The notes beneath the pieces were generated by a model that had not been told where the DNA came from, ran no database searches, and worked only from the letters and a program-made list of their open reading frames with translations. The translations under genes and the position numbers were made by a program. Source: a virus (lineage: Duplodnaviria; Caudoviricetes). From it: a stretch of DNA of 34,783 nucleotides. Positions 5,452-28,435 of this stretch are shown in pieces; the first letter of the stretch is position 1; every line of letters begins with the position of its first letter. Location: positions 1 to 34,783 of the IMG/VR virus record IMGVR_UViG_3300030372_003297; one strand, written 5' to 3'.

Positions 5452-7635
5452 ATGGGCAAATCATCAGCACCTCCAGCACCAACACCACCCTCTCCTGCCG
5501 ACATAGCTGCGGCTAATACTGAGTCAGCACAGGCTATGATGGAACTGCAACGGGCAATGCAGTTTGGTGACGAGGTAATGAAGCAGGGCTATATGAGGGA
5601 GAGTCTTGGGGTTCCTACAGGAGCAACCCCAGTTTATTCCTCTGAAACCGTAAAAACTACTGGCCCAAAAGAAATTTACCAGCAAGACCGTAAGGATGTT
5701 GACGGAGATGAATTACCTGAAAACGAATATAAACTTTTTACTGTAGACCCAAATGGAAACCTTCAGTTTGTTAAAGGGGTAAATAAGCCATCTTGGGCCA
5801 GTCAATATAAAGGAAAACCTTGGTACACTTTAAGGGATGACGGGCGAAATTTGCCTTCTTCGGGTAATCAAACAGTAAATCAAGATGTAAAGACTTTAAC
5901 TGGCTATAAAAATGCAGACGGCACAATTACTGAAGCATATCAATATTTTAAATTAGATGAAGACGGCTCAAGAGTAGCGGTAGATAGAGATGAAGCAATT
6001 CAAGCAGACTTTGCAGGAATGTCTGACATTGATTTGGCAAGAAAACAATTTGAGTTTGAGCAGGAAACTTCCCCTGAAAAAACTCGGTTTTTACTAGACC
6101 AACTTGAACAGTTCGGGCCGGAGGCAGCTAGGATTGGGCGTGATGTTCTGCAAAGAACAGACCCAACCGGATTTGCTGCGCGTGAACTGCTTGGAGAACT
6201 GGCACAGGCATACGAGCCGTCACCAGTGCCAGATGCTCCAACAATGCAGGAGGCAGGAGATGCACCTACGGCTGAGAGAATAGATGCACCCCCAACCCTT
6301 TCAGAAGTTGCTTATACTCCAGAGTACCAGAGGGCAGGTGAGTTAGGTGATCTTGGTAGAGTGCAAGCAGCACCACAGTTTGCCGAGCTTGACACTACTG
6401 GCCCAACTCTCGGACGGGCTGGGGAAATGGATGCTCTGGAAAGAACGCAAGCAGCACCTAGTCTTGAAAGGTTACAGGATATTCCTGAATTAACCGCTGA
6501 CCCAACTTCAATGGCCGGAAGAAGGTTTGCTGAACAACAGTACATTGATCGGGCACAAGATGGTCGCACTTCTCAGTTAATGGCAGAGGAGGCAAGAAGA
6601 GTTGCTAGAGGCAGAGCAGCAGCAACCGGAAACATTTTTGGAGGCGGGGCAGCTATAGAAGAGGCTCGCACAGTAAGGCAAGCTGAAGATGCAGGACAAC
6701 GTCAGGCTTTATCTGACTTAATTGGATTCCTGCAATCAGGGCAAAGTGCTGGAGACTATGAGTCTCGCCTTGCCCAACAGAATCTAGCCAACCGCCTAAC
6801 GGGCATCCAGCAGAGAACAGGAGCGGAACAAGCAGAGTTTGGAATGGGTCAGCAGGTTACAGAACAGCGCAATGTTGCTGCAATGCAGGAACGTGCTGAC
6901 CAACTGGCCGCGCTTGGGCAGCGTAATCAGGCCGAACAACAGGAGTTCCAAAACCTACAAGCCGCACTTGACCAGCAGAACCAAGTGAGAGCGCAACAAT
7001 TCGGGGCAGACATACAAGCCACCGAGTTTAACACGCAACAAAGAATGCGTGAGCGAGCAGATGAGTTGGCAGCTATGGCTCAACGTAATCAGGCTGAAGA
7101 GTCTGAGTACCAGAACCTGCTTCAGGGCTTGCAGCAACAACAGAACGCCAGAACCGCAGGGTTCGGTATGCAACAACAAGCAGTTGCTCAAAGGAATCAA
7201 GCTGCCGAGTCTGACTTTGCTAAACAGCAATCGGCACTGGCTCAACGTAATCAAGCCAGACAACAATCCTTTGCTAATGCAATGCAGAGAACTGCTACGC
7301 AGCAACAGATGCAACAACAACAGATGGCTAACTTGCAGAGCTTTAGCGGGTTAGCCCCTGTCAGCCAGCAGTTTGGTGGAATGGCTGGAGCGGGACAGGG
7401 TATGGCAACTACCTTCAACCCAATCCAATATCAACCTACCAGCGCACAATCCTTATTGCAGGGACAACAGCAGTTGCAGAGCAACCTGTTTGGCACTCAA
7501 TCACAGAACTGGCAGACGCAAGCAAACATTGCTGCTCAACCGAGTGGATTTGGTCAGATACTAGGAACAGTGGCAGGATCGTTTGCTGGAGGTGTGGGAC
7601 AGAAAGCCGGAGCAAAATGGTTCCCAGGAGGCTAA
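5452..7635 (+). CDS. Putative internal virion/ejection protein, Gln/Ala-rich repeats
   Basis: MGKSSAPPAP start, QRNQA repeats, Gly-rich hydrophobic C-terminus. Confidence 0.65.
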   Translation: MGKSSAPPAPTPPSPADIAAANTESAQAMMELQRAMQFGDEVMKQGYMRESLGVPTGATPVYSSETVKTTGPKEIYQQDRKDVDGDELPENEYKLFTVDPNGNLQFVKGVNKPSWASQYKGKPWYTLRDDGRNLPSSGNQTVNQDVKTLTGYKNADGTITEAYQYFKLDEDGSRVAVDRDEAIQADFAGMSDIDLARKQFEFEQETSPEKTRFLLDQLEQFGPEAARIGRDVLQRTDPTGFAARELLGELAQAYEPSPVPDAPTMQEAGDAPTAERIDAPPTLSEVAYTPEYQRAGELGDLGRVQAAPQFAELDTTGPTLGRAGEMDALERTQAAPSLERLQDIPELTADPTSMAGRRFAEQQYIDRAQDGRTSQLMAEEARRVARGRAAATGNIFGGGAAIEEARTVRQAEDAGQRQALSDLIGFLQSGQSAGDYESRLAQQNLANRLTGIQQRTGAEQAEFGMGQQVTEQRNVAAMQERADQLAALGQRNQAEQQEFQNLQAALDQQNQVRAQQFGADIQATEFNTQQRMRERADELAAMAQRNQAEESEYQNLLQGLQQQQNARTAGFGMQQQAVAQRNQAAESDFAKQQSALAQRNQARQQSFANAMQRTATQQQMQQQQMANLQSFSGLAPVSQQFGGMAGAGQGMATTFNPIQYQPTSAQSLLQGQQQLQSNLFGTQSQNWQTQANIAAQPSGFGQILGTVAGSFAGGVGQKAGAKWFPGG

Positions 7636-12300: not shown

Positions 12301-12867
12301 ATAGAACGAATGGCCGAAGGCAAGTTGGCTAATGTCGTTGATCCTTATAGTTTTGTCCGGCTTTTAAAAGGCGATAAAGAATACTCCGATTATCTGAAAA
12401 ACGTACTAGGCAGCGAGTATAGCACGGTTGAGTCGTTATCTGACGCATTAATGCCAACTGCTAGGCGTGACGCTATGACGCACGGACTTGGATCGTTAAC
12501 AGGAAAAACAACTTACGCCCAATTTGCACAAACCTCTTCAGATGACGCTTTAAAACTTGGCACTCAAGTAGCTAGAACATTTTTAATGTCTACCTACCTT
12601 AAAGGAGGTGTTGGCGTGACAAAATACCTTGGAGATGAAGCTATTCAAGATACTGCTAAAAAAATTCAGTCCTTTCTCATCAACCCGTCAGTGGAAAAAA
12701 TTGCAAAAAGCATACAACTAATGGGCAGACCAGCCGCAGTGGAAGTGTACCGCACACTTCAAGCTCAATACGGTGCTGGCGATGCAGATGAAATTTGGAA
12801 AGAAATAAACGAACTGGCAGACCAGTATGAGCCAGAGTTTCATGGAGAGATAGAACAGGAAGACTAA
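9382..12867 (+). CDS. Large putative internal virion/ejection protein
   Basis: 1161 aa, helical, last gene of the structural operon. Confidence 0.6.
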   Translation: MANQWTDKDEEGLNLLMNQAFPEKTDSGKEEYYFPSTGQNRPPSGFDPDREAYYGPLEESIPDKELALKKAKKVTDARPPEAVKAEIEKVAEEFRKAYNKTSSRNLLTGGPTAQAHMRAAEGLKKYNYLIPENMPLEEAFRLAGKTSQGKTLQNIRDRYDSLRTGVEDVRTSLLSKAERTQSSLVNQKDREAFLRSLPGIDKVAWDDDLGSFIVRRNGRYGLTDEKGASIGDVLDVTGPALDALLTVGTIEGGPLAPVAKAGVKKGAKKAITTVRNWLDKITKTTTKKAAATGGMEGGLQFGRERLSQEILLPEDAPKASTKELGYDAFETALMSGIFQGGTDKLAKTAKGTVRKLAADKTDDIALKGARAREQLQMTGLTKGEADTSLARAEATLSKMPFSNIKDKYIELYEQVADFAQKNTEGRKTLEDINDHLDEIVSPFAKQEARLTKAQADAATAASALTKSQTKLKEGALDELQKEAERSSEKLIRGNVIPEIRETLTQRLTKEADLATARIDQNPAMFFNDLSEAAIKRREDFQNKSAELYDKVREFPASQEPIFDTSLMKEQLETLKRGLRDEKGEVISGLSPQDMSVVDQILKAGDKQSLDDLVAFKQMIYNSIGNDIMFKGLDDKLKRDIGKATTDLINDQAEEGGEGFAKALKEANNYYSQNVNKFYNAGAKQLFLDETKRTGGYLDSLAKDVYDSGVESQMYKNLKEMLGGNTEEMNRVNNALFGYLIGKSVKSNKVDLDSLLKSLESMDGVDPGGVVAELGFDAAALKEARKVVDGFNGSKEIDIDLVGEMFQAGAAPRATGQAIDVSKYLKIGAAQNDKVADELITVFGGKPSVPKAMREALEEVEGAKAAKLSADEAVAAEQKAMNAIANDDYFSALRSKELTGAESHKNVFGKVFKYQALAPNKLKSVVKNLEAAASKEGIEGETAKQLLKDIRIEVLNDLFNVTSRTPDILVGGKAIERMAEGKLANVVDPYSFVRLLKGDKEYSDYLKNVLGSEYSTVESLSDALMPTARRDAMTHGLGSLTGKTTYAQFAQTSSDDALKLGTQVARTFLMSTYLKGGVGVTKYLGDEAIQDTAKKIQSFLINPSVEKIAKSIQLMGRPAAVEVYRTLQAQYGAGDADEIWKEINELADQYEPEFHGEIEQED

Positions 12868-13118
12868 TCCCGACCAATAATGAACCTACACATATCCACA
12901 AAAGTCCTCTCCTTGGCCTTGGGACGCGCTTTGCGCTCTATTTGCAGCACAGCGTCCTCTACAGCCCTACGGACGAATGTAGAGCGTGACATGCCGCATC
13001 TCTTGGCTAGGTCGGCAAATTGCTCGGCTTCCTTGGCGTTTAGCCGCAGAGAAATGAAGACATCTTGGAGTTCTGATTTTTTAACGCGGGGGCGACCCCT
13101 TCTAGCCTTGGCTTTCAT
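12864..13118 (-). CDS. Ribbon-helix-helix DNA-binding protein with GRP (AT-hook-like) N-terminus
   Basis: RRGRPR; ISLRLNAKEAEQFADLAKRCGMSRSTFVRRAV. Confidence 0.8.
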   Translation of the reverse strand: MKAKARRGRPRVKKSELQDVFISLRLNAKEAEQFADLAKRCGMSRSTFVRRAVEDAVLQIERKARPKAKERTFVDMCRFIIGRD

Positions 13119-16125: not shown

Positions 16126-16851
16126 ATGCCTGAAAAAATTAATATTTCATTAAACGAGGAAGAAGCTAAGTGTTTTGCTGACGAATTTGGCAATAACCCC
16201 GAATTGCTTTTAAATGAATACAAACAGAGATCAAAATTTCCTTTCTCAGCAAAGGTAATAATCTGCTGTTTAGGTGTTGCTTTGACTGCTGTTTGGTTTG
16301 CGAAGAATAATCAGGTTAAGGCTTTGCAAAAAGGGAGTACTGACTTTTGTGCGCAGGAAATCAGCCATAGTAAGATAATAGCCGAGTTGAATAAGGAGGT
16401 TGGGGAGTTGCGTGACTTGCTGGTGAGACCTGTTAGTATTGATATAGCTGGATTAGCCGACAAGCTAAGACCGAAAAATTACTGGGCTGTGCGGCATAAG
16501 ACTACAGGTTCAACGAGATTGCATCGCTTGATCGCCGCCAAATCGGAAGGTTCAGGATTTCGTTTTGGTGTAAAAGAGCTAGAGATTGCATTGAATGAAG
16601 GTGCTGATCTTAATGTTAATCGCTATCGCGTAGACGGAAGCAACTGGATTGTGGGTGATGCTACGGGCCAAACTCCGTTGATGAAAATGATAATGTATCG
16701 GAGGTGGGATATGGTAGAATACGTTTTAGAACATCACATGGACAAGGTGGACAAGTCTGCATGCAACTGGAATGGCAAAACCGCAGCCGATTATGTTTTG
16801 CAGTTCGGCGGGGTCGGCAAGAACGAACTATACGCTATGCTAAAGGATTAA
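16126..16851 (+). CDS. Membrane-anchored ankyrin-repeat protein
   Basis: TM VIICCLGVALTAVWFA; coiled coil; GADLN, GQTPLM, NGKTAADY. Confidence 0.75.
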   Translation: MPEKINISLNEEEAKCFADEFGNNPELLLNEYKQRSKFPFSAKVIICCLGVALTAVWFAKNNQVKALQKGSTDFCAQEISHSKIIAELNKEVGELRDLLVRPVSIDIAGLADKLRPKNYWAVRHKTTGSTRLHRLIAAKSEGSGFRFGVKELEIALNEGADLNVNRYRVDGSNWIVGDATGQTPLMKMIMYRRWDMVEYVLEHHMDKVDKSACNWNGKTAADYVLQFGGVGKNELYAMLKD

Positions 16852-16914: not shown

Positions 16915-17109
16915 GTGCTTCACATGCCAAGAGACCCTGACAAAATGAAACTCGTTAGTTGCTTTGTGACTAAAGAGTTTAAAAGAAAATTAGAAAAAGA
17001 AGCAAAGCGGCTCGGCATTTCAGTTAGCGATCTAGTGCGTCTAAACTTAAAAAAGCACATGGGAACCGATGATAATATTGGATCTCAGAAGAAGTCTTCA
17101 AAGCGGTAA
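16915..17109 (+). CDS. CopG/Arc-like ribbon-helix-helix regulator (start may be ATG 16924)
   Basis: LVSCFVTKEFKRKLEKEAKRLGISVSDLVR. Confidence 0.8.
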   Translation: MLHMPRDPDKMKLVSCFVTKEFKRKLEKEAKRLGISVSDLVRLNLKKHMGTDDNIGSQKKSSKR

Positions 17110-17340: not shown

Positions 17341-17517
17341 ATGTATCTCACCTACGACGATTTAGCTGAAAGGTTCAAGGTAACGAAGCGTTACCTGCGT
17401 AAGCTAGTTAAGGAAAATAAAATTAGAAGCGTTCGGCTTGGGCGATCAAGAAGGTTCCGACTTGTAGATGTAGAGGAATTTGAAAAGAAATTACTGTGCG
17501 AGACGACGATGAATTAA
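17341..17517 (+). CDS. Excisionase-like HTH protein, 58 aa, not in ORF track
   Basis: MYLTYDDLAERFKVTKRYLRKLVKENKIRSVRLGRSRRFRLVDVEEF; AAGGA RBS. Confidence 0.85.
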   Translation: MYLTYDDLAERFKVTKRYLRKLVKENKIRSVRLGRSRRFRLVDVEEFEKKLLCETTMN

Positions 17518-17997: not shown

Positions 17998-18585
17998 ATG
18001 AAAGAAAATATTGAAGAACCTAAAAACCGATCAAGCCTAGCAAAGGCTTTATCGCAATTTCAGTCAAAATGCCAACCTGCCAGAAAGAATAAAGACCAAT
18101 CTTTTTACAAAGACAAAAAAACAGGGAACCCCTCAAAGTACGCAGACATAAACGCTATTATTGAGGCTACAAAGGAGCCACTTACTAATGCAGGGTTAGC
18201 TTTTACAGTTGTTCCTGATTTTACCATAGAAAAACTAAAGTCAGTTCGCATCATAACTCATGCCGATGGAAGGGTGGAGACGGTTGAAAAAGAAGAGGCA
18301 AAAGTGTTTGAGTTTACCAGAGCAATTTTAATGTGCGGTGACACATGGATTGAGGGCAAGCAAACAATAAAAACAGGAGCAAAATCCCCTGAAGACCCGC
18401 AAGCAGTTGGGGGAGGAATGACTTTTAACAGAAGGTATATGCAACAGTGCATGCTAAACACCATGCTTGCTGATAAAGAAGACGACGACGCTGAAAAACT
18501 TCAAAACCGACCCGACAAACAAGAATCTCCGAGAAAGGCCGTAAAAGCCAGAGTCCCTGCCAAAGCGGAAAGTGAAATGCTGTGA
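17998..18585 (+). CDS. erf: ERF-family ssDNA annealing protein
   Basis: SKYADI..I, GLAF, PQAVGGGMTFNRRY, EDDDA. Confidence 0.85.
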   Translation: MKENIEEPKNRSSLAKALSQFQSKCQPARKNKDQSFYKDKKTGNPSKYADINAIIEATKEPLTNAGLAFTVVPDFTIEKLKSVRIITHADGRVETVEKEEAKVFEFTRAILMCGDTWIEGKQTIKTGAKSPEDPQAVGGGMTFNRRYMQQCMLNTMLADKEDDDAEKLQNRPDKQESPRKAVKARVPAKAESEML

Positions 18586-18848
18586 GTGAGAGGGGTGATT
18601 CACCTTCCGCGTCTGCTATGGAGCAGATCGCGCTGTGTCCTGCTAGCCATCAGGCACAGCGTGGTCTGCCCGAAAATACCAGCAAAGCCGCGCATCGGGG
18701 AACCATGATTCACCTGCTACTTGAGCTTAATAAAAAAGATTTTGAGTGCGCTATTGAGTTGGCGGCAAAGCGCGACGAACTCATTGACCAGATATTTCCC
18801 ACTGGCCGAAAGATGACAATGAAGGAGCAACGGTTATGGCTGAAATAA
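18582..18848 (+). CDS. Cas4/DUF2800-like PD-(D/E)XK nuclease, N-terminal part
   Basis: SASAM...CPAS...A.RGT.IH...E.RLW. Confidence 0.75.
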   Translation: MSERGDSPSASAMEQIALCPASHQAQRGLPENTSKAAHRGTMIHLLLELNKKDFECAIELAAKRDELIDQIFPTGRKMTMKEQRLWLK

Positions 18849-19198
18849 GGTTTTCAGGCCAAGCTGATCACATTGTAACACAAGGTGATGTAGGCTTAAT
18901 AATGGACTACAAGACAGGGACATTTCCTGTGACCCCTGCTAGTCAAAACCTTCAGCTGATGGCTTTAGCAGTGCTGCTGAAGGCTAATAAACCAAAGCTG
19001 ACCACAATCTATGCTGCAATCCTCCAGCCCACTTACGAGCCGGAGTTGGTTTGTTATGACGAAGACGCACTAGCAGATGCTCGGGAGCATATTATAAGCC
19101 TTTTAAAAAAGGCAAACGCGGAAGATGCACCGCGCATTGGAGGCGATAAACAATGTCATTTCTGCAAAGCAAAGGAGGACTGCGATGAAGCACCTTGA
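18836..19198 (+). CDS. Cas4/DUF2800-like PD-(D/E)XK nuclease, C-terminal part
   Basis: GQAD, DYKTG, QL..LA, C..C.....C; own AAGGAG RBS. Confidence 0.8.
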   Translation: MAEIRFSGQADHIVTQGDVGLIMDYKTGTFPVTPASQNLQLMALAVLLKANKPKLTTIYAAILQPTYEPELVCYDEDALADAREHIISLLKKANAEDAPRIGGDKQCHFCKAKEDCDEAP

Positions 19199-19699: not shown

Positions 19700-20395
19700 A
19701 TGAATGAACAACGAACACACATCGACCTCTTCAGCGGGATCGGAGGATTCGCCCTTGCAGCCAATGCTGCTGGGTTTAGAACCAGTGTGTTCTGCGAGCA
19801 AGACGACTACTGTGCCAAAGTTCTCCGAAGACACTGGCCGAACGTCCCGATTATCCCAGACGTTAAAGAGTTTGACGGAACAAGATGGAAAGGGGCCGAC
19901 CTGCTCACAGGAGGATTTCCCTGTCAGCCATTTTCAAACGCAGGTCTCAAGCTCGGAAAAGAGGACAATGACCGTTACCTCTGGCCGGAAATGTTCCGTG
20001 TTATTAAGGAAGCAAGACCCCGTTTCGTCCTTGCTGAAAATGTTACTCCACTCATTCGCTTGGCAATCGACGAAGTGCTTTCTGACTTGGGAAGCGAAGG
20101 GTACACCACAGGGACAGTTGTACTTCCAGCTTGTGCCCTCAACGCCCCCCACCGACGACCAAGGTGTTGGATTCTGGCCCACTCCAACAGCGAACGAGGA
20201 TGCGGCTGGAAGCGTGAACGGAAATATGCAGCCGATGCTGGGGAACCATCCGGCAGTCCGGAACTCCGGCAATGGGACACTGAACCCGCTGTGGGTAGAG
20301 TGGCTCATGGGATACCCCACAGGACACACAGACTTAAAGCCCTTGGAAACTCCATAGTGCCACAAGTGGCTTATGAAATCTTAAAACTAATATGA
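19700..20395 (+). CDS. DNA (cytosine-5) methyltransferase, alpha-type polypeptide (motifs I-VIII, X)
   Basis: DLFSGIGG, GGFPCQPFS, ENV, H.R.R, LGNSIVP; no TRD or motif IX in frame. Confidence 0.92.
   Translation: MNEQRTHIDLFSGIGGFALAANAAGFRTSVFCEQDDYCAKVLRRHWPNVPIIPDVKEFDGTRWKGADLLTGGFPCQPFSNAGLKLGKEDNDRYLWPEMFRVIKEARPRFVLAENVTPLIRLAIDEVLSDLGSEGYTTGTVVLPACALNAPHRRPRCWILAHSNSERGCGWKRERKYAADAGEPSGSPELRQWDTEPAVGRVAHGIPHRTHRLKALGNSIVPQVAYEILKLI
19704..20357 (+). CDS. Nested +1-frame ORF: MTase beta-type polypeptide (TRD and motif IX)
   Basis: WPTPTA and LNPLWVEWLMGYP; start ATG 19704 or 19968. Confidence 0.75.
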   Translation: MNNEHTSTSSAGSEDSPLQPMLLGLEPVCSASKTTTVPKFSEDTGRTSRLSQTLKSLTEQDGKGPTCSQEDFPVSHFQTQVSSSEKRTMTVTSGRKCSVLLRKQDPVSSLLKMLLHSFAWQSTKCFLTWEAKGTPQGQLYFQLVPSTPPTDDQGVGFWPTPTANEDAAGSVNGNMQPMLGNHPAVRNSGNGTLNPLWVEWLMGYPTGHTDLKPLETP

Positions 20396-22345: not shown

Positions 22346-23073
22346 AAGAAGACAAAGACCGACTATTTCAGTTTCCATTCTATCCGGCTGACTTCCTGGT
22401 AAGCACCATGCTAATGAGTCCGGCGGAGGTTGGAGCTTACATGAGACTGCTCTGTCACTCATGGATTGAAGACGGAATCCCATACAAAAGTAAGTCGTAT
22501 TTGGCCCGTTTGGCTGGCATATCTCCATCAAAGTTGGATCAAATCCTGTCAAAATTCTATGTGGATGATGAAAACCGTGTTCGGCATGTTCGGCTTGAGA
22601 CGGAACGAAAAAAGGTGGTGGAGCTACGCGAAAAGCGCGTAAAAGCAGGAAGAATTGGAGGCAATGCTAACAAGCAACGCTTAACGATTGCTTTAGCAAA
22701 AGAGAAGCAAGTGCAAAGCACCGCTAAACCTAACAAAACAAAACAAAACAAAACAGAACAAAGCCCCCCTATATCCCCCCGTGATTTTGAAACCAAAACT
22801 CTCTCCACAGCCGACCGGATCGGAATGGAAAAATCTCTTGTCCTAATCAGCGAAGAAATCAAAACCATTCTGAACAAGGCTGGAAGGAATGCCATGCAAG
22901 AAATCATTAGCTGGGGTAGCCCCGATGATCAGCAAAGGCTCAAGGGCTTGCGGGCGAGGGAGCGTGAAATCAAATCTCAGCTTATGGGCTTTGCCCCGCG
23001 CAAGCGCGAGACCCCCATCCATCAAGGGATGCAAGAGCTTGCCAGCGAGATAGCTGAAGAGTTAAGGTTATGA
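22342..23073 (+). CDS. DUF1376/YdaU-family replication initiator-like protein
   Basis: FPFYPADFL..T..MS..EVGAY.RLL..SW; AGRIGG; low-complexity linker. Confidence 0.8.
   Translation: MKEDKDRLFQFPFYPADFLVSTMLMSPAEVGAYMRLLCHSWIEDGIPYKSKSYLARLAGISPSKLDQILSKFYVDDENRVRHVRLETERKKVVELREKRVKAGRIGGNANKQRLTIALAKEKQVQSTAKPNKTKQNKTEQSPPISPRDFETKTLSTADRIGMEKSLVLISEEIKTILNKAGRNAMQEIISWGSPDDQQRLKGLRAREREIKSQLMGFAPRKRETPIHQGMQELASEIAEELRL
22726..22780 (+). repeat. (AAAAC)n tract plus CCCCCTATATCCCCCC inside the initiator gene; candidate origin
   Basis: aaacctaacaaaacaaaacaaaacaaaacagaacaaa. Confidence 0.45.
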
Positions 23074-23214
23074 CGCGGGCGGGAAGTGTACTGCTGATTT
23101 TAGCAATGCTGGGCTTGACCACTTTAACTTGCCCCGAACCCGCGTTTCCCCTTTCTCACCCTTCACACAATGCCCCTTTGCTGGCCCGTAAAGGGGTGCT
23201 GACGGGCTTTTGTA

Positions 23215-23233
23215 GTTTAAAGTGTCACAATGT
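23215..23233 (-). promoter_or_regulatory. Motif A copy
   Basis: Minus strand acattgtgacactttaaac. Confidence 0.65.
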
Positions 23234-23265
23234 ACCTTAGAAGCGTTAGAAGGCGTTTAAGGGCT

Positions 23266-23300
23266 AAAAAGAAAGGGCCGCCAGCTTTCGCCAGCGACCC
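23266..23300 (-). terminator. Intrinsic terminator of the minus-strand operon
   Basis: GGGUCGCUGGC-GAAA-GCUGGCGGCCC-UUUCUUUUU; wobble pairs form only on this strand. Confidence 0.85.
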
Positions 23301-23335
23301 GACTAGGACATTCCCCCAGGAACGGGGGAAAGGGG

Positions 23336-23629
23336 TTAATCTTTTAGGGGTTTCTTTCTTCTCCAATTAAGTTTGGGCATTTTTTTCTCAGCATCCTCAA
23401 TAGTGGTATCAAACTCCACTTCGCCATAAATGTTTTCCACGTTATAGGCCGAAATAAAATTGTCCGGCCTCCCGCAGATACCGTCCCAGTCCAGCACATA
23501 AAGAAAACCGTCATGGTATCCGATTTGTGCTACAGGGCTTTCAGAAATATCAATTCCGGTTGCTTCACTGTACCAAAGCAAACGGTTTGCTTTGGTTTTC
23601 ATATAAGTTTTTGCGTCTTGTGTTTTCAT
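23336..23629 (-). CDS. Hypothetical early protein
   Basis: ORF in operon with A-rich leader. Confidence 0.6.
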   Translation of the reverse strand: MKTQDAKTYMKTKANRLLWYSEATGIDISESPVAQIGYHDGFLYVLDWDGICGRPDNFISAYNVENIYGEVEFDTTIEDAEKKMPKLNWRRKKPLKD

Positions 23630-23668
23630 AAGTTTATTTTAATTGGTTTTTGGTTTGGGTTAAAGGGG

Positions 23669-24226
23669 TTAATACAGCAATTCGCTTGCGTAGCCGGAAA
23701 AGTATTGACCGCGTACGCATCCGGCCATGTCTTGCCATGTCTGAAAATGGAATTGATCCGGAAATTTTCGGATATATTCCACGCGGTCTTTAACGTCATA
23801 GCAATCCCGCCAAACGGTATCTGCCTCTTCACTTTCAAGCTCCGAAAAGTGTCCCTCATCAATCACGGGGTAATCTTCCAAAGCGCAAGCAATTTCAGCC
23901 GCCACTTCTAAATGCTTTGCCGCGTTTTTATGAATAGCAATCCATTCAATCCAGCCGCAAGCCCAATGGCCTTCTCGGACTATTGTCCAAGGCTCAACCT
24001 TGCCGCTATCATCTCCCCAAGTTAATTCGCCGCTATACTCTGGAGAAATTTTCTCCATGGCTTTGACCGCGCAAGCGAAATTGCTACGCTCCAAAGCGTC
24101 TGAGTCTCTATTCTGACCGACAAAAACATAGTGATTCTGCCATTCCGTGCCCCCATAGCTATCGGGCCGTGTCCATTTTTGTAGGTATCGCAAGGTGTTT
24201 TCTTCTAAATGTTCTAAAGGCTTCAT
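23669..24226 (-). CDS. Hypothetical acidic early protein
   Basis: RDSDALERSNF, HWACGWIEW, LEDYPVIDE. Confidence 0.75.
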   Translation of the reverse strand: MKPLEHLEENTLRYLQKWTRPDSYGGTEWQNHYVFVGQNRDSDALERSNFACAVKAMEKISPEYSGELTWGDDSGKVEPWTIVREGHWACGWIEWIAIHKNAAKHLEVAAEIACALEDYPVIDEGHFSELESEEADTVWRDCYDVKDRVEYIRKFPDQFHFQTWQDMAGCVRGQYFSGYASELLY

Positions 24227-24238
24227 AATTCTAATAGT

Positions 24239-24424
24239 TTAGTTTTGTTCCTGGTGAAAGATTCTTTGCCCCGTGGGGCTGGTAATATGGTAAATGCTCC
24301 GCGTGCGGGGGTCATACGCGCATAGCTCGCCGCGCCGGATTGAATAGCCGGACTCCACGCAACGGCTAATAAATCGCGCCTTGATAATCCGTGCGTCCGA
24401 GACGGTTTTGAATCGGGTAATCAT
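24239..24424 (-). CDS. Small hypothetical early protein
   Basis: ARF.SRC.E.G..I.RGE; fills operon. Confidence 0.6.
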   Translation of the reverse strand: MITRFKTVSDARIIKARFISRCVESGYSIRRGELCAYDPRTRSIYHITSPTGQRIFHQEQN

Positions 24425-24426
24425 GG

Positions 24427-24876
24427 TTAGTTGATCCGGTATGCAAAATAATTTGCGTTGTTATCTTCTAACTCCTCGCCGTCATAATGGCTCAAGAAAT
24501 GACCTCGCCCGTCTGCTGATATTGCGCCGTCAATGAAAGAATCCATACCTTCGCCCGCCTCAATTAAAGCAATTAAAGCGTCATTGGCGGATTCGCACCT
24601 GTCGCCGCGTAGCGCGTCAATATCTTCTCCCGTTAAGCCTTGCGGCGCATGGTCAGCAATGAACCAGCCCTGAAAAGCCCAGACAGATTCTCGGATATTA
24701 TCGGCGCAAGCCTTATCGCACTCCTCATCCGTGCCAATGGCATATTCAGCGCCGTCACAGTCAAAGACTTGCAAACCGTAATGGTCATAATTTTCTGGGG
24801 TTATATCCTCAACAGGAGTTGAGGTGATTTCTGATAGAATTGCGGAATAATCCGCGCTTGTTTGTGTAGTTTTCAT
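24427..24876 (-). CDS. Highly acidic early protein (possible DNA mimic/anti-restriction)
   Basis: D/E-rich, nearly Lys-free; DGRGHFLSHYDGEE. Confidence 0.65.
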   Translation of the reverse strand: MKTTQTSADYSAILSEITSTPVEDITPENYDHYGLQVFDCDGAEYAIGTDEECDKACADNIRESVWAFQGWFIADHAPQGLTGEDIDALRGDRCESANDALIALIEAGEGMDSFIDGAISADGRGHFLSHYDGEELEDNNANYFAYRIN

Positions 24877-24980
24877 ATCCTAGTATTTTTTCCCCATAGG
24901 GGCGTGTTGGTAGCACGTTGCCGGATTGTTCTGTCCTAGTCAGTCCGGCTCCCTATGGATTTACCTGACTAGGTTTGTGC

Positions 24981-25034
24981 TTAATCACACAATGCAACCA
25001 CCAGGAATGCTGGTGGCTGTAGTTGTAGGATTAA
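24981..25034 (-). repeat. Conserved intergenic hairpin 1
   Basis: TTAATCACACAA...TTGTAGGATTAA closing a CCACCAG/CTGGTGG stem. Confidence 0.75.
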
Positions 25035-25576
25035 TCTCGGGTAGGCATTAAAATTCCTTTCCCGCCTGTTGTCTTTTCTTCAATGATTAAAGGGCGGCTG
25101 GCATCTAGTTTGCCCGCCGGATTTGTTTCAATTTGCAATGTAACGCAATCATTGGGGCAACCTATGGCTTGGGCTAACTCATAAAGAAATTTGGCATTAA
25201 AGCTAATTGTTTGATAATCCCCGCCGCCAGTATTTTGGGGAACAACATTTTGCCAGAAAGGATATTTTAAATCTGTTCTTAATGGGTAAACTTCCCCGTT
25301 AGGCATCATAGCCGCACCATTTAAGCCAATTGTGCTTTCTTTAGCCTTTTTGGCTTGTTTCCTTGCCTCAATCAATGCCTTGGGAGTCATTAGCTTTTGA
25401 CCGTCCAATTGATCTTCCTCAGCTATCTCAATGGGTACAATTGCCATCCGGCGGCCATCAGTGGCAACGGCATTGTTTTGACCGTCTTTGGATTCAATCA
25501 AAATTGATTGCAACGGCTCACGTGTTTCATCTTTTGAAACTACTTTCTCTAACTTACAGTTTTTTGGTATTTTCAT
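25031..25576 (-). CDS. DNA polymerase III beta-clamp-like protein (half size)
   Basis: SKDETR..L, VATDGRRM, YP.W..VVP, FNAKFL, ILMP.R. Confidence 0.8.
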   Translation of the reverse strand: MKIPKNCKLEKVVSKDETREPLQSILIESKDGQNNAVATDGRRMAIVPIEIAEEDQLDGQKLMTPKALIEARKQAKKAKESTIGLNGAAMMPNGEVYPLRTDLKYPFWQNVVPQNTGGGDYQTISFNAKFLYELAQAIGCPNDCVTLQIETNPAGKLDASRPLIIEEKTTGGKGILMPTRD

Positions 25577-25606
25577 TGGTTTATCCTAGTTTTGTTTTGT
25601 TTTTGG

Positions 25607-25915
25607 TTAAATTGTTAACTCAGCAACTTTATCTTCGCCGATCCATTCTTTAAATTTGTTTGGGGTCATGGACATGACAAACCCTTGTGAGTCTTCAACT
25701 AAGATTAGTTCAGGTAAATCTAGATTAAAATGTTCTAGCTCTTCATAGGTTAAATCAAATCTGACCGCCCAAATTCCATGCCCATCTTCTTGGCAGCAAA
25801 TCACTTCACCATCGCCATCAAGGGAAATTTCATACAAATATGGGGTAATGGGGTTCTCAAGTTCAAACTTTCCAGCTTGGCTTACAATATCCTGATAGTA
25901 TTTTAATGCTTTCAT
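25607..25915 (-). CDS. Hypothetical acidic early protein
   Basis: GKFE.E...YLY..SLDG, EDSQGFV. Confidence 0.7.
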   Translation of the reverse strand: MKALKYYQDIVSQAGKFELENPITPYLYEISLDGDGEVICCQEDGHGIWAVRFDLTYEELEHFNLDLPELILVEDSQGFVMSMTPNKFKEWIGEDKVAELTI

Positions 25916-25934
25916 TGTCCTAGTTTTGGTTTTT

Positions 25935-25986
25935 ATTAATCACACAAGTCCGCCTTCCCAATGGAAAAGCAGATTGTAAGATTAAT
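25935..25986 (-). repeat. Conserved intergenic hairpin 2
   Basis: ATTAATCACACAA...TTGTAAGATTAAT with a different inner stem. Confidence 0.75.
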
Positions 25987-26185
25987 AATCTGAAATAGAA
26001 TTTACACTGTTTATAACATCCCAAACAAGCTGGTTTCCTTTTTCAATATCTCCGCAACCAAGCTCTTCTCTCTCATGCGGAGTGGTAATGTCAGCGGGTG
26101 TACATTCAGGAAATGCATCAGGATAATAAGTGCCGTTTTGGTCATGTTGCTTTATGCGTTTTTTAATCTGTAGAGTGTTTAACAT
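25982..26185 (-). CDS. Hypothetical early protein
   Basis: First ORF of operon, ACTAGGA leader. Confidence 0.6.
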   Translation of the reverse strand: MLNTLQIKKRIKQHDQNGTYYPDAFPECTPADITTPHEREELGCGDIEKGNQLVWDVINSVNSISDY

Positions 26186-26234
26186 AGTCCTAGTCTTTCA
26201 TTAACCGGCTGAGTCATTCCAACCGGCTCAGATC

Positions 26235-26263
26235 AAAGTCTCATGGATTTCCTTTCCCGTCAA
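26235..26263 (-). promoter_or_regulatory. Candidate sigma70 promoter for the early operon
   Basis: TTGACG-17 nt-GACTTT with extended TG. Confidence 0.45.
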
Positions 26264-26372
26264 TATCTTTTTCGTCATTAATTGTGTCACGTTATTAACA
26301 GCAATTAATGATTAATTGAATAATTGGCTTTTCCTTCCCGTCCTTAGATACTAAAACTCCTTTGCTTTTATT

Positions 26373-26828
26373 ATGTCAATTAAGGTAGTAAAACCCGTTT
26401 CAAAGAAGCTCGCCAAGCCAAAGACAGGTCGCAAGCCAATTGCCTTGAAACTAACAGATGAGCAGCTTGACGAGGCTAAACAGGCTTTGAGCGTGGGATT
26501 CCCTCAAGGTAGGATTGCAAGTCTCCTGGGGATTAGTGAGGCAGCATTTAGCCGGATGCTGAATAGGAACAAGGGTGATAATGAATTGGCTATATCCCTT
26601 TCTCTGGCTAAAGAGAAAGGTAAAAAGAATCTATTAGGATTAATAGACAAACACGCGCAGAAGAATTGGCAAGCTGCAGCATGGCTGCTGGAACGGTGCA
26701 ACGGTTCACAGTTCGCACAGCGAACCCAAACCGGATCAAGTCCACAAGTGACAGTAAACTTGCAAAATGTCATGGCCGCGCAAGCGAAACGTCCGGCAGA
26801 AAGCGTCAACAAGGCTAAAGACGTTTGA
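26373..26828 (+). CDS. terS: Terminase small subunit
   Basis: N-terminal HTH, NWQAAAWLLER; precedes TerL. Confidence 0.8.
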   Translation: MSIKVVKPVSKKLAKPKTGRKPIALKLTDEQLDEAKQALSVGFPQGRIASLLGISEAAFSRMLNRNKGDNELAISLSLAKEKGKKNLLGLIDKHAQKNWQAAAWLLERCNGSQFAQRTQTGSSPQVTVNLQNVMAAQAKRPAESVNKAKDV

Positions 26829-26893
26829 TAATAGCTCTGTTATTGTGGGTTATTCTAGTTTAGCGCGGTAGTTTGAGAAACTAGCGGTCAATC

Positions 26894-28435
26894 ATGCCAG
26901 CCAAATCTCCAAAGCCAAATCCGGAAGACCACGCCGACCCCAGGACCCCCACGGTCAGTAAGGTTGCTTCTGCACCCCCCTCTCCAAAACAGCCCAAAAC
27001 AAAAAGACTTACAGCGAAGCAGAAGAAAGAACTGGAGCAGAGCAAGACCTATGACTTGCAATGGTTTCCTGAGCGTTGGTTAGGCGAGCAGCCGTATGGC
27101 TGGCAGTTTGATGTGTTGAAGGCATTGAACTACAAGGAGAGTCGGGTGGCTTTGAAAGCGGCCAATGGATCGGGCAAGACGAGCATGGTAGCCGCAGCGG
27201 CTGTGGTTTGGCATGTGGTGAACTTTCCGGAGAGTCTGTGTGTTTGTACTGCTGGAGTGTTTAGGCAGGTTGAGGGCGCGTTATGGCCCGCTATCAGGCG
27301 GTTTACAAGTCAGTTGACAAATGGCGATGGATTTGAGGTGACACAAAGTGGTTTAAGGTTTGTGAATGGGGCTAGGGCGATTGGGTTTAGTGCGAGTGAC
27401 GCGCATAAGGCGGAGGGTTGGCACAGGCAGGGGCCGACAGATAATCTGATGTTTATTGTGGATGAAGCGAAGGGCATTCAGGACGAGAAGATTTTCCATG
27501 CGGTAGAGAGATGTCAGCCTAGTCGGTTACTGATGATGAGCAGTCCTGGGGCTGCTAGTGGATTCTTTTATGAAGCTTTTACCAAGCAAAGAGACAGGTG
27601 GGACACATTTACGGTGACGGCGTTTGATTGCCCGCATTTGACCAAGGATTGGATTGACGAACAGGTGAGGACGTATGGGGAGAAGAGTCCTTTGATCCGG
27701 TCTATGATTTATGGGGAATTTGTTGATGACAGTGATGAAGGTGTGGTTTTGAGTCTGCGTGAACTTGAGGAATCCTTACAAAGCCCCCCGAAAAGAGGGG
27801 AGGGGTTGAATGTGGCTTTTGTGGATTTTGCTGCTGGAGGAGATGAAACGGTGTTTTGTTTGCGGAAAGGCAATGAAATTACGGAGATGGAGACTTGGAA
27901 GGAAAGAGACACCAACAAGACCATTGGCAAACTGATTAATTTATTTGACCGCCACGGGTTAGTGGCTGACGAGATATACGGGGATGAAGGCGGGATGGGC
28001 TTACCGTTGTGTGATGCGTTAATGGACGCGGGTTATGACATACACAGGGTTAATTTCGGAGGTAAACCGTTTGATGCAAGGTATCAGAATCGGGGTGCGG
28101 AGATGTGGCACACTGGTGCGAGGGCAATAGCTAATAAGGAAGTGATCTTGCCTGATGACAAGAAACTCCATCAACAGCTTGTGTCAAGACGGGTGGAGGT
28201 AAGTCGGCAAGGCAAGCTGGGCCTTGAACCGAAAGACAAGATGAAATTGAGGGGGTTAGCCAGTCCGGACAGGGCTGACGCAGTGTTGGGGGCTATTAGT
28301 TGTGGGGGCGGTGTGGGGGGTAGTTGGGAGAAATATGATGCTTTAAGCCGCCCCACCCTTGAGCAGTTGTACGACGAAGCCGGAGCTATGGCCGAGTATG
28401 ATGCTGTCCCAGACGGGATGTTCACAGGGTATTAA
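26894..28435 (+). CDS. terL: Terminase large subunit
   Basis: AANGSGKT, FIVDEA, SSPG, VDFAAGGD, SPDRADA. Confidence 0.93.
   Translation: MPAKSPKPNPEDHADPRTPTVSKVASAPPSPKQPKTKRLTAKQKKELEQSKTYDLQWFPERWLGEQPYGWQFDVLKALNYKESRVALKAANGSGKTSMVAAAAVVWHVVNFPESLCVCTAGVFRQVEGALWPAIRRFTSQLTNGDGFEVTQSGLRFVNGARAIGFSASDAHKAEGWHRQGPTDNLMFIVDEAKGIQDEKIFHAVERCQPSRLLMMSSPGAASGFFYEAFTKQRDRWDTFTVTAFDCPHLTKDWIDEQVRTYGEKSPLIRSMIYGEFVDDSDEGVVLSLRELEESLQSPPKRGEGLNVAFVDFAAGGDETVFCLRKGNEITEMETWKERDTNKTIGKLINLFDRHGLVADEIYGDEGGMGLPLCDALMDAGYDIHRVNFGGKPFDARYQNRGAEMWHTGARAIANKEVILPDDKKLHQQLVSRRVEVSRQGKLGLEPKDKMKLRGLASPDRADAVLGAISCGGGVGGSWEKYDALSRPTLEQLYDEAGAMAEYDAVPDGMFTGY

Follow-up and report, generated by a model that had tools for sequence, protein, structure and literature searches.

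A conserved and apparently undescribed RNA circuit in a phage cassette operon: an internal switch whose loop is tracked by the operon's 3' end

The window studied here is the whole of the IMG/VR virus record IMGVR_UViG_3300030372_003297 (Caudoviricetes), 34,783 bases of a phage record that is 92% complete and stems from a sample labelled marine metagenome. Nearly all genes of the window are carried by the plus strand. The minus strand holds an operon of seven genes (26185-23336), which is divergent from the small terminase gene and convergent with a DUF1376 gene. Comparison of this operon with its relatives points to a real, conserved and apparently undescribed phage RNA circuit, in which the loop of an RNA switch inside the operon and a single-stranded stretch near the operon's 3' end are complementary and change together. 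No description of the element was found in the literature, a search that lay outside the supplements of comparative-genomics RNA motif catalogues, which could hold it.

The original prediction for this region had proposed an antisense circuit, with ACUAGGA boxes at early gene starts and a complementary small RNA derived from the operon's 3' end. Complementarity and covariation have since spoken for such a circuit. The best-supported target is an internal switch which that prediction had missed, and the element with the complement is not always at the operon end (a further gene follows in 12 of 17 copies).

Occurrence of the box and sampled loci

The sequence ACTAGGA occurs seven times in the window: five times on the minus strand (26194-26188, 25924-25918, 25590-25584, 24940-24934 and 24884-24878) and twice on the plus strand, at 23302-23308, which is the complement as read from the operon strand, and at 7560 inside a late coding sequence. 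This is a modest excess (shuffle mean 2.97; 1 of 100 shuffles reached 7), and the rarity of CTAG in the window is mild (0.79 of expected, rank 18 of 256). The five minus-strand copies lie within 1.3 kb, four of them directly 5' of ATGs, with their complement in the 3' end of the same operon. The coordinates and spacings originally given for the four boxes before ATGs and for the fifth copy are all correct.

Protein and pattern searches yielded 33 distinct loci of the operon family (denoted by L numbers), of which 30 were analysed; L139, L206 and L208, with almost no operon DNA, were dropped. Most of the 119 matches of one search were unrelated, as were 10 of 15 new matches inspected from a later search. 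A covariance model of the switch described below found six distinct divergent switches beside terminases 68-79% identical, and more were added by pattern search. On 31 loci with a large terminase (terL) 61-65% identical, many of them with little upstream DNA, only L265 was matched by the switch model.

The internal switch

The fifth box copy was originally noted at its correct location (24932-41), without its role in a switch and without a second complement of the box, CCUAGUCAG, at 24973-24965. In view of this second complement, the fifth copy belongs to a switch: as judged from comparison of homologues, it is the loop of a conserved RNA switch at 24973-24878 on the minus strand, with the following parts.

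24965..24973, minus strand: switch strand S, CCUAGUCAG, the second complement; partner of either the loop box or start box 4
24894..24958, minus strand: three-way junction of the switch, with P2 24958-24951/24901-24894, P3 24949-24944/24925-24920 and P4 24917-24903
24934..24943, minus strand: loop box (fifth copy; ACUAGGA 24940-24934), in the P3 loop, no start codon after it
24878..24884, minus strand: start box 4, 1 nt before ATG 24876; when the switch is in the OFF fold, it forms the 3' strand of P1
24427..24876, minus strand: gene predicted to be controlled by the switch, 149 aa, no function assigned

The loop box pairs with S and is also complementary to the window's 3' seed (see below) over 10-12 nt. 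In all 20 close homologues the minimum-energy fold is the OFF fold, in which the P2-P3-P4 junction is closed by P1, the helix of S with the start box. The plain S:loop hairpin is 0.9-13.4 kcal/mol less stable than the OFF fold in these homologues, and is predicted to form first in the growing transcript. Among 27 homologues, 12 of 22 pairs of the closed fold are changed on both sides and 98.3% of cells are paired, which none of 500 shuffles reached, with an alignment that was fitted to this fold; for P2-P4, 11 of 16 pairs are changed on both sides. The alignment was not fitted to the S:loop helix, which has 4 of 9 pairs changed on both sides, 99.2% of cells paired and 18 cells; it is reached by 0 of 500 shuffles on cells and by 19 of 500 on pairs. 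Compensatory change across the homologues shows that both pairings of S and the three-way junction are kept. A switch with two states is well supported by this comparison, and we consider it very probable that the element is a real cis-regulatory RNA.

Further details fit into this picture. In L248 the start box is shifted onto the first codons, and hence S would cover the AUG and the next codons rather than an upstream box. The S:loop helix ends at most 1 nt from P3 in 25 of the 27 homologues, and in all 20 close ones the gap of 0-1 nt is followed by an A-rich strand of 8-10 nt. This geometry would suit an H-type pseudoknot of the S:loop helix on P3, which is a prediction. Box position A7 is invariant in 26 of 27 loop boxes; it is mostly not paired by S but paired by the seed. 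The sole loop box without A7 belongs to L242, where no 3' seed was found either. What would be expected of a metabolite riboswitch or a self-cleaving ribozyme was not seen: there is no Rfam match, and P2-P4 are freely substituted with almost no fixed bases.

One or two more hairpins are present 5' of the switch (24977-25035, minus strand, and in relatives), with a box-like CUAGGA in one arm in L219, L220 and L225.

The 3' element and its seed

The complement of the boxes at the 3' end of the operon, termed the seed, is part of an element of two hairpins.

23311..23330, minus strand: hairpin 1, likely protective; sequence replaced in divergent relatives
23301..23310, minus strand: seed UGUCCUAGUC, complement of the boxes, unpaired between the hairpins
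23266..23300, minus strand: hairpin 2 (stem 23300-23275) with GAAA loop and U tract, resembling an intrinsic terminator

A 79-nt fold of the element (z -3.52), with its terminator-like site, confirms the original placement of UGUCCUAGUC (23310-23301) as unpaired between the hairpin at 23330-23311 and the terminator hairpin. The sequence TCCTAGT would be expected about 0.03 times in the operon's 583 intergenic nt, a post hoc figure. Exposure of the seed depends on the length of the RNA, and the earlier claim holds in this respect for the short form only: in an RNA of 75 nt the unpaired share of the seed is about 0.91, and it is 0.45 when 36 nt more upstream are kept, because GAUUA at 23341-23337 pairs with the seed. 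Over 24 copies, exposure ranges from 0.45 to 0.97 if the RNA is terminated and from 0.29 to 0.93 if it reads through.

In 17 distinct close copies, hairpin 2 has 3 of 11 pairs changed on both sides and 100% of cells paired; the loops are GNRA in 16 copies, and UUCG occurs in two variants of hairpin 1. The opposite strand of the element folds 7-17 kcal/mol worse. G-U pairs and GNRA or UUCG loops indicate structures on the operon strand at the RNA level. The bases UCCUAG are invariant, also in searches that leave them free. L247-249 and L309 have another sequence as hairpin 1 and retain the seed as a linker between unrelated hairpins, and L243 and L245 have it as the loop of a 13-bp hairpin that precedes a terminator. 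Across the copies compared, the seed is kept single-stranded in three frames. There is no conserved promoter before the element: the upstream DNA consists of the ends of many different genes, and hence a 3' RNA would have to derive from the operon transcript. A processed small RNA of about 70 nt is the proposed product. Contigs from two RNA sequencing runs of the same sample did not cover 23000-26500, which speaks neither for nor against expression.

Covariation of the seed with the loop box

Both loop box and seed are available in 21 of the 27 switch loci. Four of the other six are cut short (one of them, L232, shares its contig with L139, where the element is found), and two, L228 and L242, are without the element in the fetched DNA. 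L228 has a AAUCCUAG stretch in its last operon gene (7472-7481), maybe by chance, which was not counted.

In the 21 loci, loop box and seed pair over 7-12 nt at a distance of 0.9-3 kb. Position 1 of the box is paired with the seed in 20 of 21 loci (A-U 16, G-C 4, one C-C mismatch), and position 8 in 17 (U-A 13; C-G 4, in the window, L184, L243 and L245; mismatched 4). Cognate pairs average -17.7 kcal/mol vs -15.9 when permuted, and 0 of 20000 permutations reach this for all 21 loci; with hand-picked representatives, P is 0.002 when nine and 0.042 when four are taken. In the window, the loop box is predicted to bind the seed at about -13 kcal/mol after opening costs. The loop box is in this comparison tracked by the 3' seed.

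Start boxes (n=49) are paired with the seed at position 8 in 43 cases and at position 1 in 40. The covariation that had been suggested as a check is hence found for the loop box, and is weaker for the start boxes (permutation P about 0.05). Taken together, pairing of seed and box, in one direction or the other, appears probable from these sequences.

Boxes at start codons

The remaining boxes of the operon stand before its first three genes.

26188..26194, minus strand: start box 1 (ACUAGGA), 2 nt before ATG 26185, after a leader hairpin; invariant in 9 of 9 leaders
25918..25924, minus strand: start box 2, 2 nt before ATG 25915, after a strong intergenic hairpin
25584..25590, minus strand: start box 3, 7 nt before ATG 25576

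Across the 30 loci, boxes were counted within 18 nt of gene starts. Of the 59 genes as far as the switch gene, itself included, 46 have such a box, compared with 0 of 75 genes between the switch and the 3' element, 0 of 22 past the 3' element and 2 of 40 unplaced genes. In the window 4 of 44 starts are boxed. For seed binding these four take ranks 1-4 among the 45 starts of the window (-14.3 to -11.0 kcal/mol, the next at -8.0), a ranking which is partly circular and in which S lay outside the target region used for gene 24876.

The boxes end at most 4 nt before the ATG in 34 of 48 cases, in line with the original remark that three of those in the window are too close for a Shine-Dalgarno (SD) sequence; 10 of 48 end 6-7 nt before. 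Canonical SD 5-mers occur at 33 of 109 distinct unboxed starts (shuffled mean 7.3, with a maximum of 16). Among boxed starts 5 of 39 have them (3.2 shuffled). A match of the motif to the host's anti-SD had been named as a possible refutation; checked indirectly, the motif does not match and unboxed genes carry canonical SD words. The fixed spacing of 5-10 nt and genome-wide use expected of an SD for an altered anti-SD are not seen for the boxes. Judged from the phage starts, the host 16S 3' end not having been read, the box is not such an SD. Read-through of the TAG in the box, or mini-ORFs, were considered and rejected, since this TAG has no constant frame relative to the ATG.

Proposed mechanism

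Based on this dataset, we lean towards a negative feedback in which a stable RNA from the operon's 3' end would flip the switch to OFF and mask the boxed starts; the comparison shows the structures, their complementarity and covariation and the placement of the boxes, and the stability of this RNA, its binding in trans, the direction from ON to OFF and the polarity on downstream genes are the inferred parts of the model. Pairing of S with the loop, either as the predicted pseudoknot on P3 or as a co-transcriptional hairpin, would leave the start free (ON). The 3' RNA would build up only once RNA polymerase has crossed the operon, and would bind the loop box via 1-4 extra nucleotides not covered by S, whereupon the displaced S may move onto the start box (OFF). 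The tightly packed, unboxed genes downstream would then fall silent through lost translational coupling or polarity, which in turn would reduce the supply of 3' RNA. The upstream genes, which are independently initiated, may be masked directly at their boxes over 7-10 nt. The operon would shut down after a first burst of expression, and its output would be a self-limiting pulse of host-takeover proteins in the absence of a protein regulator, which any cassette could join by landing behind a box. The circuit may serve as a timer or as an immunity factor.

A wider version of this theory describes a plug-in control bus, in which a pseudoknotted, natural toehold switch reads the operon's 3' RNA and the 7-nt box recruits cassettes. 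In a lysogen or a co-infected cell this RNA would then silence the anti-defence genes of related phages that enter, and seed changes would define immunity groups. We consider this version a speculation that is rather doubtful at present.

Several observations weigh against the proposed feedback. After 12 of 17 distinct copies of the 3' element a further gene start stands behind a weak U tract, so that the element does not in every case close the operon. When the transcript reads through, the seed is paired with a CUGGG further downstream in 11 of 17 copies, and GAUUA on its upstream side can mask it by half. In L228 and L242 the switch is present and the fetched DNA contains no 3' seed; L188 has seed and boxes with no switch. 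The long-range changes may amount to perhaps 2-4 independent events, and the statistics ignore relatedness. Start boxes track the seed weakly over the 21 loci, and those of the divergent group mismatch at position 1 in 9 of 11 cases, leaving 6-8 bp. Without the pseudoknot, the OFF fold wins unaided, by the difference to the plain S:loop hairpin given above. The pseudoknot itself is estimated at -0.7 to +6.0 kcal/mol relative to the OFF fold, a rough value that depends on an assumed penalty.

Alternative explanations

These observations may also be accounted for by a self-contained switch, acting as a kinetic timer or responding to a protein or ligand, with the start boxes as junction repeats for ribosome binding or recombination and the seed as a relic or of local use. 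Unrelated arrays (L005, L009, L010, L014 and L018) repeat start motifs with no exposed complement, other junction motifs recur in the 3' half of the present array, the A at position 1 of the start boxes was retained where the seed changed, CUGGG is a possible local partner of the seed in the 11 of 17 copies mentioned, and L228 and L242 are without a seed. However, the seed persists where CUGGG is missing (the window, L001, L097, L187, L198, L191, L243, L245 and L247-249), is kept in three unrelated frames and changes with the loop box over 0.9-3 kb, and the near absence of fixed bases in P2-P4 is unlike a ligand pocket. We therefore regard this explanation as rather unlikely. The same covariation would also support the reverse polarity, in which the junction of about 65 nt is excised as a small RNA and the loop box acts, as in phage P4 CI, on S and on the 3' element, controlling termination or the last gene. 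The loop box is flanked by an upstream and a downstream complement, as CI is between seqA and seqC (PMC4825925), and the junction has the size and three-helix shape of C4 as described in PMC5320573; pairing of the loop box can extend 2 nt into the terminator stem, and the weak U tract is followed by a gene in 12 of 17 copies. This polarity leaves the boxes at 48 start codons unexplained, however. In L243 and L245 the complement occupies the loop of a hairpin of its own, which precedes the terminator by about 20 nt, in the window there is nothing 3' of the terminator, and neither a GG or GGW start of P2 nor a 3' CCA is seen in the alignment, which makes it improbable to us.

The same pairing could take place in cis, the full-length mRNA folding back so that its 3' end reaches its own boxes and a separate small RNA is not needed. 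This would agree with the missing promoter before the 3' element and has a 1:1 supply built in. A single seed cannot cover 3-7 boxes simultaneously, however, the seed is more exposed after removal of upstream sequence (0.91 vs 0.45), and the 5' hairpin resembles, as we interpret it, a protection for a free RNA; we hold pairing in cis to be very improbable. The box may also be imagined as a protein site, either for a GGA binder of the CsrA/Rsm type or as a DNA operator around CTAG, or as an SD for an unusual host 16S end. It does hold GGA and a palindromic CTAG core, and AGGA is a possible weak SD in the 10 of 48 boxes ending 6-7 nt before the ATG. Yet the phage genome, to which the search for CsrA was confined, encodes none, unboxed genes show an enrichment of canonical SD words, and the loop box is not followed by a start. 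The complements belong to the same RNA strand, in folds of RNA type, and position 1 changes with its partners. Hence such a site appears hardly credible.

Comparison with known RNA systems

By analogy, the circuit works like a combination of the OppZ/CarZ principle with control of the C4/CI type, and is a member of neither. Rfam gave no match at gathering score in the window or in L242, L243, L247 and L248, and C4 (RF01695) had no match at E<=10 in 23000-27000. A match to BjrC68 was rejected as a generic terminator match (27 bits vs 39). The original description had likened the RNA to C4 and CI and called its sequence different; by the comparisons made here it does not belong to C4.

OppZ and CarZ of Vibrio cholerae are described as RNAs from operon 3' ends which pair with their own transcript and block translation (PMC7398697). 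The operon studied here has a shared operon terminator and a seed complementary to the translation starts of the same operon, with one more gene following in 12 of 17 copies. The account of OppZ/CarZ and our prediction have in common a negative feedback that needs no transcription factor and a polarity onto downstream genes. Their operons are chromosomal and metabolic, with RNase E and Hfq involvement shown by experiment, whereas the present operon belongs to a phage; OppZ, as reported there, addresses one transcript via a direct site, whereas here 3-7 repeated boxes, a covarying switch relay and exchangeable cassettes are seen (PMC7398697).

C4 of phages P1 and P7 is described as a short RNA cut from a longer transcript, of which a single-stranded stretch occludes ribosome-binding sites (PMC5320573, PMC2864571), as would also be predicted for the present RNA. 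According to the same sources C4 has 77 nt, three stems, two loops (a' and b') and an RNase P cut at GGW, in contrast to one seed between two 3'-end hairpins here. Three stem-loops with a' and b' were not found: the 3' element has two hairpins and one seed, the junction has one box-bearing loop, and the alignment has no GGW at the 5' end of P2. For P4 CI, complements (seqA and seqC) up- and downstream in one transcript and action by premature termination in the leader are reported, and IsrK of Gifsy-1 binds one strand of a two-state mRNA structure and shifts it, switching translation on (PMC4825925). The layout of the CI type is found in 21 of 27 switch loci, with the loop box between S and the 3' seed, and 4 more are cut short. 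Complements on both sides in one transcript and a two-state mRNA structure are shared with the CI and IsrK of that account; in our prediction, by contrast, the effector is located 0.9-3 kb downstream and turns translation off, and there is no sequence relation (PMC4825925).

The start-associated sequences (SAS) of Cluster K mycobacteriophages are described as an oriented non-SD repeat a few nt before the ATGs of unrelated non-structural genes, with an unknown partner and with one copy in opposite orientation in several genomes (PMC3203893). In their closeness to the ATGs of unrelated genes they are like the start boxes. They differ in being 13 bp long, spread over a genome arm and containing AGGAG, and that account reports no switch or covarying complement (PMC3203893). 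PeSL cassettes of T4-like phages likewise place repeated intergenic regulatory motifs between shuffled early genes, but are presented as promoter/terminator composites that serve as recombination points, with no antisense partner in those accounts (PMC4122927, PMC2839356).

Operon organisation

Besides the switch gene, the following features of the operon are recognised.

26235..26263, minus strand: predicted operon promoter of sigma-70 type, -35 TTGACG 26263-26258, 17-nt spacer, weak -10 26240-26235; putative function
25982..26185, minus strand: cassette gene 1, 67 aa, no family
25607..25915, minus strand: cassette gene 2, 102 aa, no family
25031..25576, minus strand: cassette gene 3, 181 aa, like a sliding clamp (beta subunit central domain)
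23336..24424, minus strand: three downstream cassette genes with no box, 61, 185 and 97 aa

TTGAC at 26263 is invariant in 9 of 9 aligned leaders, which suggests a promoter for the host polymerase. Promoter and gene content together lead us to infer an early operon. Cassette gene 3 matches Pfam PF02767 (E 1.7e-5, below cut-off), phrog_947 (E 1.4e-10) and phrog_3007 (E 4.5e-11).

The 30 loci comprise 196 genes in 78 families, and by this comparison the minus-strand operon is a shuffled array of cassettes. The slot 3' of the switch is taken by 8 different families in 20 loci, with ArdA in L220. Boxed families number 20, and 5 of them have a Pfam match: ArdA (L220, E 6e-36), beta-clamp central domain, DUF7227, DUF7249 and DUF1419. 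Genes downstream of the switch gene are tightly packed, 56 of 75 starting at most 15 nt past the previous stop, compared with 3 of 33 boxed genes. L188 and L184 share 2,657 bp at 99.96%; the 5' part of L188 differs and is without the switch. The unrelated phages of L005, L009, L010, L014 and L018 carry arrays of small-gene cassettes beside packaging genes, with an own repeated start motif each and with shared gene families. The same design with another seed was looked for in 15 other arrays, some of them incomplete, none of which had a repeated start motif together with an exposed complement. The five unrelated arrays with repeated start motifs lead to the conclusion that repetition alone proves nothing.

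Further junction motifs were observed at the 3' cassettes, namely TTAGAATTATG, AAAATAA(A/C)CTTATG, and TTAACCC at stops (in the window at 24224-24234, 23627-23640, 23657-23672 and 23333-23339, minus strand). TTAGAATTATG differs from a boxed start by two changes and is unable to pair with the 3' seed. L025 and L265, which are one contig, carry boxes and a switch (cut by the contig end) beside a different packaging module (terL 63-64%, terS 19%), which indicates that the regulatory operon has moved between phage groups.

The phage

The window encodes portal, terminase, major capsid and tail proteins, a tyrosine integrase, Erf, an exonuclease, a C5 methylase and a DUF1376 protein, a gene content which makes a temperate tailed phage most likely. 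No close cultured phage was found, the best capsid matches being about 26-30% identical, with no DNA match. L229 was the one match among genome contigs, a 4-kb contig in a metagenome-assembled genome labelled Rickettsiales; it is possibly mis-binned and was not used. Among the ORFs scanned of the integrase-bearing phage, no match to a CI-type repressor was found. Two ribbon-helix-helix (RHH) proteins and an HTH_17 protein are encoded at 12864-13118 (minus), 16915-17109 (plus) and 17341-17517 (plus). An argument that immunity would be based on RNA only was dropped, the genome encoding two RHH and one or two HTH proteins. A PD-(D/E)XK exonuclease (phrog_69, DUF2800) is broken into two ORFs of 88 and 120 aa (18582-19198, plus). 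The tetranucleotide TCGA is strongly avoided across the whole window (0.13 of expected), which suggests a host restriction site, and the phage-encoded C5 methylase gene lies at 19700-20395. A gene of 241 aa 3' of the integrase (16126-16851, plus), with a membrane-like segment and weak ankyrin matches, is a possible moron.

Implications

Early operons of phages that swap host-takeover genes need a control which is independent of the gene in the slot. In the operon family described here a solution encoded in the sequence is visible, with boxes on 20 unrelated families (a clamp-like gene and the ArdA antirestriction protein among them), a single switch and a single complementary 3' end. If our model is true, it would extend the autoregulation by 3'-end RNA, shown for Vibrio operons, to phages, and would add a natural RNA-triggered strand-displacement switch. 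A test is suggested as well for the SAS repeats of mycobacteriophages, which have long lacked an explanation and several of which come with one copy on the opposite strand.

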